Shown: positions 2,529 to 62,283 of the stretch, piece by piece | Numbering within the stretch: the stretch's first letter is position 1 | Layout: the number at the start of each line of letters is the position of its first letter | From: Dehalococcoidia bacterium | Lineage (GTDB): Bacteria; Chloroflexota; Dehalococcoidia; Lucifugimonadales; UBA3495 | Direction: 5' to 3' | Length of the DNA stretch: 64,000 nucleotides | NCBI GenBank assembly: GCA_965232845.1 | Contig: OZ247428.1 | Span: forward strand, 1,565,543 to 1,629,542 | The notes under the pieces: generated by a model | Told to the model about the DNA's origin: nothing | The model's database searches: none | What the model saw: the letters and a program-made list of their open reading frames with translations, nothing else | Program-made: the position numbers and the translations under genes

Positions 2529-5036
2529 TTAGGTGAACTCGGCGCTAACCCGCTCCATAAACCGCGCAACCTGCGCCGCTAGAGTGGCATGTTCCTCCAA
2601 GGCCAACTCCGGATCCTTCTCAATGATCTCCATAGCCTCGTTCCGCGCCATGTCCAGCAGGTCTCTGTCCGATAGCTGGGCCATCCGGAGGCTGGGCAGA
2701 CCGCTCTGGCGGGTGCCGAAGAAGTCGCCAGGACCCCGCATTTCCAGGTCAACCTCGGCCAACTGAAAGCCATCCCGGGTACGTTCCAGCGCCGCCAATC
2801 GCTCCTGGGCCAGTTGGGACGGGTTTTCCGACATGAGAATGCAGTAGCTCTTGTGCTCGCCCCGGCCCACCCGGCCACGGAACTGGTGCAACTGGGAGAG
2901 GCCGAACCGGTCGGCGCCTTCGATAAGCATTACAGTCGCATTGGGCACATCAATACCCACCTCGACCACCGCCGTAGTCACCAGGATGTCCGTTTCACCG
3001 TCTCGGAAACGCCGCATCACCTTGTCTTTCTCCGCTGAGGACATCCGCCCGTGGAGGAGGCCCAGTTTCAGGTCGGGGAACACTTCCTTCGACAACCTTT
3101 GATGCTCGTCAGCCGCTGCCTTTGCTTCGATGACCTCCGATTCTTCTATCAGGGGGCACACTATGAATGCCTGTCGTCCCGCCTGGATTTCACGCCTGAT
3201 GAAGCCATAGGCAGCCTCTCTTCGTTCCGGCTCTAAGTATCGTGTCAGGATTTCCTGGCGTCCTGGAGGAAGTTCGTCAATCGTGGAAATGTCGAGGTCG
3301 CCGTAGAATGTCAACTGCAAGGTCCGGGGTATTGGCGTCGCCGACATGACTAGGGTGTGCGGATTTTCGTCGCTCTTCTGGCGCAGCGCCGACCGCTGCA
3401 TCACACCGAACCGGTGCTGCTCATCCATCACCGCCAGGGCCAGTCGCGGAATTTCTACACCTTCCTGGATCAAGGCATGAGTACCGATAAGCAGATCAAG
3501 GGTTCCTTCGGAGGCCATGCCCGTCAACCGCCTGCGCGGTCTGGCCCGAGTGCTCCCAGTTAGCAGTCCTACCGTCAATGGCCGCCCCAACGCTTCCAGG
3601 TAGACGGTAAGCAAATTCTCGGCCTGGGTGGTGTCTGCCATGCCTCCCAGCAGCCTGGCCACCGTCTGGAAGTGCTGTTCAGCCAGAACCTCAGTCGGCA
3701 CCATGATGGAACCCTGGTACCCGCGGGCTATGGCCGCCAGCAGGGTGATAAGCACTACCACCGTCTTCCCGCTGCCCACTTCCCCTTGCAGCAAACGGTT
3801 CATGGGGGGAGTGCCCTGACCCAGATCGGCCAGAATTTCTTCAATGCTGCGGCGCTGGGCCCCGGTAAGCTCAAAGGGCAGGTTGGATATCAGCCCGTCG
3901 ACCAACTCTGAGCCTCCTGAAATGGTGACACCCTCAATCAGTTGGTTTTCCTTTTGCCGGCGGGACAACACCGACAGTTGGAGAGTCAACAGTTCGTCGA
4001 AGGCCAGGCGGCGGCGGGCCTGATCCCGGTTGGCCTGGCTGGCAGGGAAATGGGCCTGTCTAATGGCCTCCCTCAATGAGATAAGACCTCGACGCTTTCG
4101 TACTGCTTCAGGGAGTGATTCCGATAATAGTGGCAACCCCAACTGAAGCGCTTGCCAGGTAAGGTTGCGAAGAGTCCGACCGGTCAACCCTTGGGTCAAA
4201 GGGTAAACCGGCAAGAGGCGTCCGGTATGAATCGATGGCTGGCCGCCTCGCAGAACTTCATACTCGGGTGATTCGAACACTAACCGGCCGTTGAAGACGT
4301 CAACCTTGCCGCTTATAGCCACCCTAGTACCTGCAGGAAGGGTCCGAGCAAGGTATCCTTGTCCAAACCAGCTAACCTTCACGCTGCCCGTCTCGTCGGC
4401 CAACTGGGCTTCCGTTATCCTGAGCTGGCGGTTTCGCCCTTTTCGCTCTTCACGAATCTCCAGGATGTTCCCCTCTACAGTCCTTTCTTGACCGTATTGC
4501 AATTCCGCAACCTTGACGACAGCGGAGTAATCCAGATGACGTCTAGGGAAGAGGTAGAGAAGATCCCTGAGAGTGGTAACGTCGAGCCTTCCCAATTGAG
4601 CTACCCGCTTGGAATCGACCCGTTGCAGAGCGGTAACCGGCGAATCAAGGCTGAGGGGCGAGGGATCTAATTCGGGAGTGCTGCGCTGGCGGGAGGTCTT
4701 CTTGGGGCGGGTAGCATTGGCCTTGCCGGTCTTCTCGGTCTGGGAGTCCGTGCTCTTGGTTGCAGCAGAAGCGTCATTGCCTTCCAGCATCGCAAGCCAC
4801 TGGCTTGCCCACTCCGCCCTTTCCTCGGAGCTCATGGAGGCATAGCCCGGCCGGATAAGGTGGCGATTGGCTGGAAGCTTGCTAACGAACGAGGCTAAAG
4901 ACGAGGACCACAGGCGTACGAATCCATCCATTCCCCCGATTACAGCCTTGTCGTTGTAGCCGTTAGCACGTTCCAATTCAAGGATGTTCCGGAACGGCTG
5001 CATCCAGGCTTCCGATTGCTGGCGAGAGGAAGTCAT
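2529..5036 (-). CDS. recG: ATP-dependent DNA helicase RecG (with ~150 aa N-terminal extension)
   Basis: 835 aa. Walker A is GEVGSGKT and the DEAH box is MDEQHRFG. Also has the wedge/OB region and the C-terminal TRG motif region RGPGDFFGTRQSG. Confidence 0.93.
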   Translation of the reverse strand: MTSSRQQSEAWMQPFRNILELERANGYNDKAVIGGMDGFVRLWSSSLASFVSKLPANRHLIRPGYASMSSEERAEWASQWLAMLEGNDASAATKSTDSQTEKTGKANATRPKKTSRQRSTPELDPSPLSLDSPVTALQRVDSKRVAQLGRLDVTTLRDLLYLFPRRHLDYSAVVKVAELQYGQERTVEGNILEIREERKGRNRQLRITEAQLADETGSVKVSWFGQGYLARTLPAGTRVAISGKVDVFNGRLVFESPEYEVLRGGQPSIHTGRLLPVYPLTQGLTGRTLRNLTWQALQLGLPLLSESLPEAVRKRRGLISLREAIRQAHFPASQANRDQARRRLAFDELLTLQLSVLSRRQKENQLIEGVTISGGSELVDGLISNLPFELTGAQRRSIEEILADLGQGTPPMNRLLQGEVGSGKTVVVLITLLAAIARGYQGSIMVPTEVLAEQHFQTVARLLGGMADTTQAENLLTVYLEALGRPLTVGLLTGSTRARPRRRLTGMASEGTLDLLIGTHALIQEGVEIPRLALAVMDEQHRFGVMQRSALRQKSDENPHTLVMSATPIPRTLQLTFYGDLDISTIDELPPGRQEILTRYLEPERREAAYGFIRREIQAGRQAFIVCPLIEESEVIEAKAAADEHQRLSKEVFPDLKLGLLHGRMSSAEKDKVMRRFRDGETDILVTTAVVEVGIDVPNATVMLIEGADRFGLSQLHQFRGRVGRGEHKSYCILMSENPSQLAQERLAALERTRDGFQLAEVDLEMRGPGDFFGTRQSGLPSLRMAQLSDRDLLDMARNEAMEIIEKDPELALEEHATLAAQVARFMERVSAEFT

Positions 5037-42273: not shown

Positions 42274-43119
42274 ATGGAACAAGTATCTAGCAGCGTATTT
42301 GCAGAAACCCAGATTCGAGGGTGCAATCACGGTTTCGTCGTCACGTCGGAAGGCGTGGTGATGATCGACAGTCCCCAGAAACCAAGCGACGCCCTCAAAC
42401 TGAAAGAGGAAATTGCCAAGCACGGCGAGCTTCTTTACATCATCAACACGGAACCCCACGGCGACCACTGGACTGGTAACGCCTATTTTGACGTGCCGGT
42501 CGTAGCCCACGAGGGAGTGCGGCAGCGCATCCTGGACACCAACCTGGAAGAGCACGTGGCGCGGGTAGCTGGCATGGGCCCCGATGAGCCGGCCCTGTTG
42601 GAGAATTACACTCCCAACGCGCCGGTGATCACGTTTCGCAACGGCATGACCATGCATGTGGGCGACCATACCTTCCAGATGATTCACATGCCGGGCCATA
42701 CCCTCTACCAGGCCGCTATCCTGATTAAGGAAGAAGGTGTGGTCTTCACCAGCGACAACATATTCCACAAGGTGCAGACCTACATCCAGGAAGCCAACCC
42801 CGACCAGTGGCTGCGGGCCCTGGAGTCCCTGCGCCGGCTGGACGAGGAGATATTTATTCCCGGCCACGGCCGCCGCTGCGACAAGGGCTACCTGGACGAG
42901 CAGGGCGAGTACATCCTGGAGTGGAAAGAATACGCCCGCAACGCCGTGGAGCGCGGCATGACCCGTGACGAGGCCGTCGAAAATCTCACCGACCTGACCG
43001 ACCGCTACCCCATGGATGTGGGCCAGGACGGCACCTCACCCAGGGTAATGAAGATGAACGCCGCCAACCTGTGGGACTATTGGAACAGGGAAGGCGTTCA
43101 CGAAGACCGGCCGGATTAG
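42274..43119 (+). CDS. MBL-fold metallo-hydrolase
   Basis: 281 aa with an INTEPHGDHWTGN (HxHxDH-type) motif, HMPGHT and a later PGHG. GGGAGGG Shine-Dalgarno upstream. Confidence 0.8.
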   Translation: MEQVSSSVFAETQIRGCNHGFVVTSEGVVMIDSPQKPSDALKLKEEIAKHGELLYIINTEPHGDHWTGNAYFDVPVVAHEGVRQRILDTNLEEHVARVAGMGPDEPALLENYTPNAPVITFRNGMTMHVGDHTFQMIHMPGHTLYQAAILIKEEGVVFTSDNIFHKVQTYIQEANPDQWLRALESLRRLDEEIFIPGHGRRCDKGYLDEQGEYILEWKEYARNAVERGMTRDEAVENLTDLTDRYPMDVGQDGTSPRVMKMNAANLWDYWNREGVHEDRPD

Positions 43120-43340: not shown

Positions 43341-43901
43341 CTAGACCCTCTCACCCTTAAATGCCCACAGCCAGTCCTGATCCCGGGCCGGGCCCGTAAC
43401 CCACCCGTCCATGGCCTGCTGGCGTTCCGCCCCAATGTCCACACCCAGGCCATCGGCCAGCCGGTTCATGAAATTGAACAGGCAGGTAATCCCCACCACT
43501 GAAAGTATCTGCTCATCAGGCAATCCCAGTTCCCTCAGGGTAATTACATCCGCCTCCCGCATTTCCGTCGGTTCTTTGGTCAGCTTCACCGCAAAGTCCA
43601 GCATGCCACGGGTCTGCGGGTCGAGGTCGGCAGTCGTATAGTCGTGCAGGACATGACTGGCGTATTCCGGGTCGTCGGAATGTTGACGGAGGAACCCCCC
43701 GTGGGAAGATGCTCAATAGCGGCAGCGGTTGATCACTGACACGGCTACGGCAATGGATTCCTCCTGAATCCGGGTCAGCTCCGAGGCGCCGAAACTGACG
43801 GCCTGGTTAAGGTTGCGGACCGCCTCCATCATCCTGGGGTTAATGGACATGGAGCTAATAATGCCGGGCATGCCCACGTCTTCCTGTCTTATCCAGGTCA
43901 T
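43341..43901 (-). CDS. AhpD-like / carboxymuconolactone decarboxylase (CMD) family peroxidase-related selenoprotein, CxxU motif (in-frame TGA at 43715-43713)
   Basis: ORF-track pieces 43713..43901 and 43341..43604 are in one frame; I verified this codon by codon. Readthrough gives ...IAVAVSVINRCRY-U-ASSHGGFLRQH...MLDFAVKLTKEP... The family motif is N-x-C-x-Y-C-xxx-H, so the TGA replaces the second Cys. The total of 186 codons is typical for the family. AAGGAG Shine-Dalgarno at the start. Confidence 0.8.
43686..43702 (-). promoter_or_regulatory. candidate bacterial SECIS hairpin for the AhpD-like gene
   Basis: On the coding strand, ACGGGG-GGUUC-CUCCGU forms a 6-bp stem including one G-U pair, with a GGU-containing apical loop. 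It starts 10 nt after the UGA. Confidence 0.45.
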
Positions 43902-43987
43902 GGTCTGCTCCTTCTTCTCCCGTCATCTGGTCCAGTAAATGACGGGTAGTTCTTTTTGGGTAATTCTCCAACAGTGGCCAATTCAGG

Positions 43988-44374
43988 CTATTCGCTCACC
44001 GAGGCCGGGCGCGCCCCCTCCAGGTAATGAGTATGTTCCGCAGAATAGGGATCAAGGGCAGGAAAGAACACCAGCAGGTGAGCCGTACCTTCGCCGGTAA
44101 CTCTAAAGGAGTGCTCAGCCCCGGGGGGAATGACCACGGTGTGGTTAGGGCCGACAGTCCGGGTTTCCCCATCCATGCTGACTTCCAAAGTTCCTTCCAT
44201 TATGATGATCAGCTCGTCAATAGTGTGAGTGTGCAACGGAGCGCCGGCTCCAGGCTCGGCGGTATTGATGCTAAAGGTGCTGGTTACCCCCTGTTCGTGG
44301 CCGGCCACGTCCCACTTTCGGTAGCCAGGCCGCCAGGGCACTTCCGGAGCATGGGAATGGTCAATTATGGGCAT
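43988..44374 (-). CDS. cupin-domain protein
   Basis: 128 aa with GAGAPLHTHTIDELIIIMEGTLEV...PPGAEHSF (two cupin motifs). GGAGGA Shine-Dalgarno upstream. It lies 86 nt upstream of the AhpD-like gene on the same strand. Confidence 0.8.
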   Translation of the reverse strand: MPIIDHSHAPEVPWRPGYRKWDVAGHEQGVTSTFSINTAEPGAGAPLHTHTIDELIIIMEGTLEVSMDGETRTVGPNHTVVIPPGAEHSFRVTGEGTAHLLVFFPALDPYSAEHTHYLEGARPASVSE

Positions 44375-44620: not shown

Positions 44621-45139
44621 ATGACCACGCCAGCGGCACAACCGGATAGTGACCGGATTTCCCGGTCTTTTACCATCCAGGGCGACGCGATGACCCTGGA
44701 AGGCATGAAAAAGCAGGCGGAAGCCCGCGGTTTCACGATTATGTGCGACGAAGGGCCCCCTATGGGCGACAACACCGCGCCTTCTCCCATGACCTATTTC
44801 GCGGTCGCCATCCTGTTTTGAGAAATGACCCAGCTTGAGCGGTACGCTCAGATGATGAAAGTGGACCTGGGGCAGGTAAAAGCTAATGTCGGCTTTTCGG
44901 TTTCTTCCGAAGGTTCGGTGCTTCGACAAACGGTTCAGGCCAAGGCGGACAAGATCAACATTCACTATGACGTAGTTTCTAATGACCCGCCGGAACGGGT
45001 GGCTGGCCTCATGCGGAACGCCCGCAACGGTTGCTACGCCCGCCAGTCCTTCGGGCGCCCTGAGTTGTTCGAAGACACTATCAACTTGAATGGCGAGCCC
45101 TTTGACATGGCTGACTACCCGGCTCCAGGCGACAACTAA
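44621..45139 (+). CDS. OsmC/Ohr-family peroxiredoxin-like selenoprotein (in-frame TGA at 44819-44821)
   Basis: ORF-track pieces 44621..44821 and 44825..45139 are in the same frame (offset 204 nt). Readthrough gives ...NTAPSPMTYFAVAILF-U-EMTQLERYA... and later RNARNGCYARQSF. The TGA aligns with the first conserved OsmC Cys (E. coli ...IGAAHAAC-FSMALS), and the second Cys motif is retained. AGGAGG Shine-Dalgarno 6 nt before the ATG. Confidence 0.8.
44835..44851 (+). promoter_or_regulatory. candidate bacterial SECIS hairpin for the OsmC-like gene
   Basis: UUGAGC-GGUAC-GCUCAG, a 5-7 bp stem with GGU in the apical loop, beginning 13-14 nt after the UGA. Confidence 0.45.
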
Positions 45140-61083: not shown

Positions 61084-62283
61084 TTACCGTGCCAGGCCGT
61101 AGGCGACAGCCTTAAGGTTGGCATCCTCCGATTCGTTTAGGGTCGCGGCCACGCTGGCAATCAACTTGCCGCAAGCCGTGTCACCCCAGAACCAGCGGTG
61201 CAGAGCCTCCTCGTCTGCCCCCTTCTGCTGCTCCATCCTGGCTTCGTAATAGAAGGCTTTGAGGTCGTCGGCGCAGTACCGAATGAACTGGGCCCGGGAT
61301 ACCCCTTCCGGCCGCTCCGACATATCGGCATCGGCATCCCCTTCGGCGCAACCCTCAAGAAATCTGATCACGCCCCTGAAGCGTCGCTGGGGAACGCCAC
61401 ACAGACCCACTGCGGTTCTGCCGCCGTTATTGTCCAGCCAGCGTTCGTAAAAGGCCCTCAACGCTGTAACTTCGTCCGCGGCGCTTCGGGTAGCTGGCTC
61501 AACCTTGGTATCGACCTGCGACGCCTGAGGCATTATCGATGGAGCTGAATCATCGGGGAAATCTTCCAACACCGGCCCTGTAGCGGCCTTGAGAAGGTCG
61601 AATGCCGCCTCCAAAACCTGGTGTTGGTACTCCGCATCGTTGGGCCTTCCCAGGGCAAACCCGAAGAAGAAAGGTACGAACAGGGCCCTTGGCGGCTTTA
61701 CCTTCTCGGCATGCTCACGGACCATTGCGATGGTGGTTGTAGCTACTCCATGTTCTTCAATAACCCTGGACAGCACACTCACGGTGTGGGTGCAAAGGGG
61801 TCAAGTAGGGGTCAGGAGCGCCACGTCAACTCCCTCTTCCTTCAGCCACCGAGCCACCTCTGGTCCGGTTTCGTCAATTAGCTTGCTGGCATCACGCAGC
61901 GCGCCCATAAAGGAGTAGTAGTTAGCAGACAATTCACCAATCTTTCCTTGCTCTACCAACTCCCTAAGCCGGTCCACCGGAAATGTGACGTTCAAGTCCC
62001 GATAGATGCCGGTATGGTCGAAGCCTATGGAAAAGTGGCTTTGCACCACGTCCGCCGGGTTGGAGTCGCTGGGAATAACCCGGTAGGTGTACTCGCCGCC
62101 GGGATCATCGCGCGTGAATGGCTTGTCGCCGCGCAGGTGCAGGCCGGCCGAGGTAACCAGGGCAACCTTGCACTGGGACAATGGCTTAGACAATCCCACC
62201 CAGGGTGTGGATTCATGCTCCAGGCAAGGAAAAAACTCCAGTGTCCTGCGCTGTACTTCGCTCAGCGTTTCCAGTCTGGGCAT
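61084..62283 (-). CDS. GrdB/PrdB-family (glycine/sarcosine/betaine/D-proline reductase selenoprotein B-like) selenoprotein, UxxC motif (in-frame TGA at 61803-61801)
   Basis: ORF-track pieces 61801..62283 and 61084..61782 are in one frame. My readthrough gives ...FPVDRLRELVEQGKIGELSANYYSFMG...EEGVDVALLTPT-U-PLCTHTVSVLSRVIEEHGVATTTI... This parallels GrdB ...LRELEKEG.IG...AVILTST-U-GTC...IER.GIP. (from memory). GAGGAGG Shine-Dalgarno before ATG 62283. 399 codons in total. Confidence 0.75.
61764..61800 (-). promoter_or_regulatory. candidate bacterial SECIS hairpin for the GrdB-like gene
   Basis: On the coding strand directly after the UGA: CCCCUUUGCACCCACAC-CGUGA-GUGUGCUGUCCAGGG. The core stem CACAC/GUGUG (61774-61788) has a GU-containing loop, and an imperfect lower stem CCC.../...GGG extends it. 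Confidence 0.4.

Follow-up and report, generated by a model that had tools for sequence, protein, structure and literature searches.

A new selenoprotein family, AhpD-like proteins (COG2128) with a CxxU motif, was reported in 2005 on the basis of 27 Sargasso Sea sequences (Zhang et al. 2005, PMC1088965). In the GOS data, AhpD-like proteins form the fourth most abundant prokaryotic selenoprotein family, with 299 sequences and 902 Cys homologs (PMC2398784), and a 2026 review lists an 'AhpD-like protein, TIGR01926, CxxU' (PMC13188914). BSepDB has a page for the AhpD-like family, and places Dehalococcoidia MAGs among the most selenoprotein-rich bacteria, with 46-49 selenoproteins each (PMC13326102). 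The biology of CxxU AhpD-like selenoproteins has been described since 2005, and Dehalococcoidia are already known to be selenoprotein-rich. The closest characterized homolog of the protein studied here is DR1765 of D. radiodurans (PDB 6k40), whose knockout is H2O2-sensitive and whose CxxC cysteines are needed for complementation (PMC8945050). Four further solved structures, 3c1l, 2pfx, 2oyo and 2prr, are structural-genomics entries described as 'uncharacterized peroxidase-related protein'.

The DNA analyzed here, referred to as the window, is a stretch of 64,000 nt from a Dehalococcoidia bacterium. Its minus strand contains, at 43341-43901, a gene that very probably encodes a 186-residue selenoprotein of the AhpD-like family (TIGR01926/COG2128), with the UGA of codon 63 decoded as selenocysteine (Sec). 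Translation of this frame shows one internal stop, the TGA at 43713-43715 (-), and 186 codons running from an ATG at 43899-43901 to a TAG stop at 43341-43343. The frame is free of further stops and of frameshifts. The start codon is fixed by the N-terminal motif M[ST]WIR(Q/E)E, which is conserved across 75 relatives, and a Shine-Dalgarno-like GAAGGAG, read off the sequence, lies 6 nt 5' of the ATG (43908-43914, minus strand). ORF calling with table 11 splits the gene into a 62-aa ORF (43713-43901) and an 87-aa ORF (43341-43604) in the same frame. The start of the latter is Met100, and residues 64-99 fall between the two called ORFs.

A first-pass annotation of this DNA had proposed that the two ORFs share one frame, that readthrough gives VINRCRY-U-ASSHGGFLRQHSDDPEY, and that residues 64-99 are coding. 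The frame and the sequence are as claimed in our translation of 43341-43901 (-), and residues 64-99 are conserved as protein in the relatives. No paralogs of the gene were found in the same genome. Every check suggested by the first-pass annotation came out in its favor, with two qualifications given below: the lack of an Rfam SECIS match, and the residues other than Cys in the closest non-Sec relatives. The locus is very probably a genuine selenocysteine gene, of a known AhpD-like CxxU antioxidant family, which ordinary gene callers split at the UGA.

Comparison of the read-through protein with profile libraries shows that it belongs to the NCBIfam family TIGR01926 ('peroxidase-related enzyme'), scoring 126.7 bits where the curated cut-off is 81.8. 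In the alignment, residues 7-154 correspond to positions 24-173 of the 178-position profile, and a match to Pfam CMD covers residues 22-100 (E 6e-10). Both cross the UGA, which settles favorably the profile alignment that had been suggested as a check. The narrower TIGR00778 profile (ahpD_dom) matches residues 41-79 with 40.9 bits (cut-off 27.8). The protein contains the AhpD signature E48-x11-C60-x2-U63-x3-H67, in which the codons of Glu48, Cys60 and His67 lie at 43758-43760, 43722-43724 and 43701-43703 of the minus strand. In an alignment of 40 sequences, Glu48 and Cys60 are invariant and His67 is conserved to at least 90%; the invariance of Cys60, which opens the C-x-x-U pair, extends to Sec and non-Sec relatives alike. 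Residue 63 aligns with the second Cys in 66 Cys-form relatives. The five PDB sequence matches (3c1l, 2pfx, 2oyo, 2prr and 6k40; E 1e-27 to 3e-23) all place it on the second Cys of I-N-x-C-x-Y-C-x-x-x-H-G. The proposal that Sec stands in place of the second Cys of N-x-C-x-Y-C-x3-H therefore agrees with the Cys found there in the wider family and in all solved homologs.

An AlphaFold2 model, built from the 40-sequence alignment, is an all-helical, single compact domain (pLDDT 91.9, pTM 0.89), in which Cys60 ends one helix and U63 begins the next (H61-74). The top Foldseek matches of the model were 2prr, 3c1l, 2pfx, 6k40 and 2oyo, with TM scores of 0.72-0.77 and an rmsd of 1.3-2.0 Å over ~150 residues, as expected for the all-helical AhpD/CMD fold. 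These five proteins are 35-36% identical to the window protein, and share its fold and the N-x-C-x-Y-C-x3-H active-site helix, but contain Cys in place of Sec and lack its C-terminal tail. The tail (residues ~155-186, window 43341-43436) is specific to the clade and lies outside the region aligned to solved TIGR01926-type structures. It is predicted by AlphaFold2 to form three short helices, and contains an invariant Trp167 and nearly invariant Trp177 and Leu178.

Of the described systems, the 'AhpD-like 1' selenoprotein family (COG2128/TIGR01926) is matched most closely, with the same HMM, a CxxU motif with Sec in the second position, one Sec per protein, and a SECIS hairpin with a G in the apical loop just downstream. 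Its source, uncultured environmental bacteria, is also comparable, being here metagenome-assembled Dehalococcoidia/SAR202. Nothing essential differs, apart from the conserved Trp-containing C-terminal tail of the Dehalococcoidia clade. AhpD of M. tuberculosis (TIGR00777; 1knc, 1gu9) shares E-x11-C-x2-C-x3-H and the AhpD/CMD helical core. However, membership in canonical AhpD was rejected (TIGR00777, 17.6 bits against a cut-off of 191.95), the Foldseek TM score is only 0.45-0.57, and no AhpC partner or lipoamide link is evident for the window protein. Membership in NF041238 (AhpD_rel_CFYUT, alkylhydroperoxidase-related (seleno)protein), which likewise has an AhpD-related domain with Sec in C-x-x-U, was also rejected (56.7 bits against 175). 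That family has a two-part architecture of 357 positions, and the window protein matches its C-terminal domain only, at profile positions 214-343.

To place the UGA in a wider context, we used a scan of species-representative genomes, which returned 80 loci, all from Dehalococcoidia, SAR202 or Chloroflexota MAGs. In 75 of these a TGA occupies the same column, within the motif C-[RH]-[YF]-U-[AT]-x-x-H; the codon is always TGA and never TAA or TAG. Two of the remaining five have Gly at the column, and three are 5'-truncated remnants. In the genus of the window, each of 17 genomes has one gene copy with exactly one TGA, and the same is true of five of the eight other sampled genera of the family. 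One genome carries tandem AhpD-like genes with one in-frame TGA each (G187:C124:3120-3662 and 3695-4243; L108, L130).

The 3.75-Mb genome encodes tRNA-Sec (67.5 bits; called SeC with anticodon tca by ARAGORN), SelA (550 bits), SelB (352 bits) and SelD (390 bits), all above their family cut-offs. The Sec-insertion machinery, whose absence the first-pass annotation had listed as a ground for abandoning its reading, is therefore present. The selD gene (G000:C1:2451001-2451924, L018) itself contains one in-frame TGA, indicating a Sec-form selenophosphate synthetase. A second SelB-like frame (184.9 bits) and a weak tRNA-Sec-like match, 2 kb from selB, were rejected as ordinary translation genes: the region G000:C1:2888500-2890500 (L138:1-2000) contains a tRNA-Thr/Tyr/Thr cluster and, after it, an EF-Tu-like frame of 421 aa that is most likely tuf.

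A bacterial SECIS-type hairpin of 17 nt (43686-43702, minus strand) begins 10 nt past the UGA and overlaps codons H67-R72. It consists of a 7-bp stem, ACGGGGG/CCUCCGU, and a GUU loop at 43693-43695 (-). In E. coli fdhF, the minimal SECIS is an upper stem-loop ~11 nt past the UGA, and the spacing and the 17-nt size match. The hairpin had been described earlier as starting 10 nt past the UGA, with 6 bp and a GGUUC loop. The position is correct, but the stem has one pair more: a closing G-C pair, which covaries in relatives, reduces the loop from the GGUUC pentaloop to a GUU triloop. The structure, a stem-loop soon after the UGA with a small G/U apical loop, has the sequence features of a bacterial SECIS element.

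The evidence for the hairpin comes from comparison with relatives, because the fold of the window's own sequence is not significant: the single-sequence fold of the 61 nt past the UGA was no better than that of shuffled sequences (z = 0.09). An Rfam scan of the whole window and a sensitive scan of 43600-43760 gave no SECIS family (E <= 10 for the hairpin region), and the only match was a chance one to Ref68 (E 3.9). Among 75 distinct sequences, the clade consensus is UGA-N10-A-CGGRGR-GUU-YCUCCG-U. The 7-pair helix is paired in 98.5% of cells, compared with 44-62% in controls in which the 3' partners were slid by 1-3 columns, and the covariation score was reached by 0 of 500 column shuffles. 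The closing pair is G-C in 51 sequences, A-U in 19 and C-G in two, a single A-U to U-A exchange is seen at the outermost pair, and another pair alternates between A-U and G-U. Independent compensatory events at the closing pair are probably few (2-4), because most of its A-U covariation lies in one sub-clade.

Because the hairpin overlaps a conserved peptide, HGGFLR, part of its nucleotide conservation is protein-driven. As a control for the overlap with H-G-G/E-F-L-R, synonymous codon variation was measured at every conserved residue of the gene. Leu71 is encoded by CTC in 73 of 76 genes (0.24 bits), compared with 1.38-2.05 bits at other conserved Leu residues, and Arg72 by CGT in 70 of 76 (0.52 bits), compared with 1.77-2.29 bits at other conserved Arg residues. 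His67 is CAC in 75 of 75 (other conserved His residues, 83 and 86, 0.40-0.66 bits), and Gly68 uses GGR only, whereas GGC dominates for Gly elsewhere in the gene. DNA of seven non-Sec relatives encoding the same peptide served as a further control. Six of these, with Gly, Ala or Thr at the column, have 3-6 of the 7 pairs left, with codons CTG or TTG and CGC. The Sec forms have 7/7 pairs in 68 of 76 genes and 6/7 in the other eight. The seventh control, a Trp form with TGG at the column (L022), has the full hairpin (7/7), as would be seen if UGA had changed to UGG only very recently or if the TGG were a sequence variant. The conservation of the hairpin is thus borne out by covariation and by constraint at synonymous sites, and the hairpin is constrained at the RNA level.

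These data bear on another reading, to which we give only a slight chance: that the UGA is read as a standard amino acid, by near-cognate suppression with Trp, Cys or Arg or by lineage-wide reassignment. The close relative with TGG (Trp; L022/P0002) and another with Leu at this codon (P0004) show that some members carry other residues at this position. Lineage-wide reassignment is contradicted by the window itself, in which TGA terminates 17 of 61 long open frames; TGA is an ordinary stop for these frames, and UGA is therefore not reassigned in this genome. A complete Sec machinery, a column occupied by the redox Cys in the wider family, and a SECIS-type hairpin under RNA-level selection, situated where SelB needs it and decayed in relatives without the UGA, all argue for Sec.

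We also consider it very improbable that the locus consists of two small, independent genes, one for a 62-aa protein that stops at the TGA and another for a C-terminal protein started at an internal ATG, although public gene callers annotate relatives in this way (119-aa or 102-aa products). A search of 5.8 billion proteins returned full-length relatives of ~185 aa at 47-67% identity, together with very many proteins of ~119 aa or 102 aa, at 65-87% identity, covering the C-terminal 55-63% of the query. All of the 119-aa products begin at a conserved Met two codons past the UGA column, and hundreds of such calls might be taken for a gene of their own. In DNA of four metagenome contigs with short calls, however, the 62-aa ORF, the TGA and the truncated call lie in one frame, with the TGA at the same column. 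In the window, Ser65 takes the place of the conserved Met and no ATG follows until codon 100, so that residues 64-99, conserved as protein, would be non-coding. Single HMMs and solved structures span the junction, the AlphaFold2 model is one compact domain, and two separate products would halve the active-site motif.

That the gene is a nonsense-inactivated pseudogene, its two ORFs being decaying remnants, has next to no probability: table-11 calling does yield two fragments, and 5'-truncated remnants do exist in L102, L104 and L105, but the same TGA occupies the same column in 75 species-level genomes only 48-96% identical, no further stops or frameshifts occur, a constrained RNA hairpin follows the stop, and dN/dS in ten close relatives is far below 1 on both sides (0.01-0.15 for residues 1-62, 0.035-0.10 for residues 64-186), indicating that both halves are translated and under purifying selection. 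The three remnants, which lie in Dehalococcoidia genomes, comprise the C-terminal part only, from ~residue 67-70, and in none of them does the sequence upstream of position 3001 contain a recognizable N-terminal half or UGA; in L104 a short stretch is duplicated at the break.

Next, we examined the residues that replace Sec in relatives. In a representative library of 1.84 billion proteins, relatives at 35-45% identity have Cys at the column, in N-x-C-x-Y-C-x3-H. In the nearest non-Sec relatives, at ~50% identity, Gly is commonest, and Ala, Glu, Asn, Ser and Thr also occur. A comparison of relatives for alternation between Cys and Sec, suggested earlier as a check, is therefore answered in part: distant members have the expected Cys, but the closest non-Sec relatives carry Gly, Ala, Glu or Asn. 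A quick maximum-likelihood tree was constructed with SH-aLRT support only, and conclusions from it are provisional. In this tree, 75 Sec forms, one Trp form and one Leu form make up one clade (support 91); its sister clade comprises 35 proteins (support 98), in which a non-redox residue occupies the column. A divergent Sec form (L101) branches outside both clades, and the Cys forms are the outgroup. The topology suggests, provisionally, loss of the second redox residue in the sister clade, with Cys60 retained, and may reflect replacement of Sec by a non-redox residue rather than the usual Sec/Cys exchange. The presence of non-redox residues in the nearest non-Sec clade indicates that a second redox residue is dispensable for the fold, and the exact chemistry proposed below is accordingly tentative.

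Members of the non-redox clade (P0003-P0010, P0019, P0027, P0122-P0135; L099, L100, L134-L137) keep Cys60, His67 and the Trp-rich tail, and many have long C-terminal extensions (214-486 aa). The three with a reported upstream neighbor, P0005, P0007 and P0010, are each preceded by another CMD-domain gene. The Trp form (L022:581-1132, P0002; TGG, one base from TGA) and the Leu form (P0004) are nested inside the Sec clade. Each comes from one short contig, where recent substitution and a sequencing variant are indistinguishable.

The gene neighborhood was compared among the same genomes. Directly upstream of the AhpD-like gene, across an 86-nt gap, is a Cupin_2 gene (43988-44374, minus strand), possibly co-transcribed with it; the linkage does not extend beyond the closest relatives. 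On the downstream side, an MBL-fold hydrolase gene (42274-43119) lies in convergent orientation. An OsmC-like gene (44621-45139, plus strand), with an ABC ATPase gene after it, is divergent from the cupin gene. The OsmC-like gene is a neighbor and not part of the AhpD-like gene, and has its own TGA at 44819-44821. No conserved operon partner was found: linkage to the cupin, OsmC-like and MBL genes is confined to the ~11 closest genomes, and ~70 others have unrelated neighbors, so that no substrate or reductant partner can be inferred from gene context.

In the OsmC-like protein, Pfam OsmC aligns across the TGA (residues 49-145), and a hairpin comparable to that of the AhpD-like gene, with a 7-bp stem and a G-GUA-C apex, lies 13 nt past the UGA. 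Nearly all of the 23 relatives with this gene have exactly one TGA in it, the exceptions being G207, with two TGA, and G228, with one TGA and one TAG. Across the 41 relatives compared, genomes with both selenoprotein genes, OsmC-like and AhpD-like, occur in the genus and in four more genera of the family; the two are linked within the genus and in G221, of one sister genus, and are unlinked elsewhere. A PrdB-like frame of the window (61084-62283, minus strand) also contains a single in-frame TGA (TPT-U-PLC), with a small hairpin after it.

Electron transfer from AhpD to OsmC has been reported for Corynebacterium glutamicum (PMC8945050). By analogy, the AhpD-like and OsmC-like proteins, whose genes are ~700 nt apart, might form a two-selenoprotein relay for hydroperoxide reduction, in which the CxxU protein re-reduces the Sec-peroxidase. 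If true, this would be a peroxide-defense pair in which both catalytic nucleophiles are selenols. We regard the relay as unlikely; the adjacency and co-occurrence are equally expected of two unrelated selenoproteins in selenoprotein-rich genomes.

For the AhpD-like protein itself, we propose the following mechanism. The hairpin at 43686-43702 would act as a bacterial SECIS element and recruit SelB-GTP-Sec-tRNASec before release factor 2 terminates translation at the UGA. In the folded protein, Cys60 and Sec63, at the helix start, would make up a C-x-x-U redox pair, with Glu48 and His67 on either side. We take AhpD of M. tuberculosis, whose second Cys acts as nucleophile and whose first Cys resolves, to be the likely mechanistic template, and presume that Glu48, Cys60, U63 and His67 are equivalent to its Glu118, Cys130, Cys133 and His137. 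Glu48 and His67 would then correspond to its Glu118/His137 proton relay. Sec63, at the nucleophilic second-cysteine position, would attack an oxidized substrate or partner. Resolution of the adduct by Cys60 would give a selenenylsulfide, which a thiol system would re-reduce. The protein most likely serves in defense against peroxide or oxidative stress.

The additions made here to the described family are a SECIS consensus for this clade, the systematic truncation of public gene calls, and the non-redox residues in the sister clade. The main value is in annotation, and the covariation-supported consensus could be used to mend truncated calls. Dehalococcoidia/SAR202 is an abundant, largely uncultured bacterial class, for which hundreds of records are cut at the UGA into 62-aa and 87-, 102- or 119-aa fragments, labeled 'hypothetical' or 'peroxidase-related'. 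Because the gene is cut at the UGA, the active-site half of the protein is missing from protein databases, and the use of selenium by this class is under-counted.
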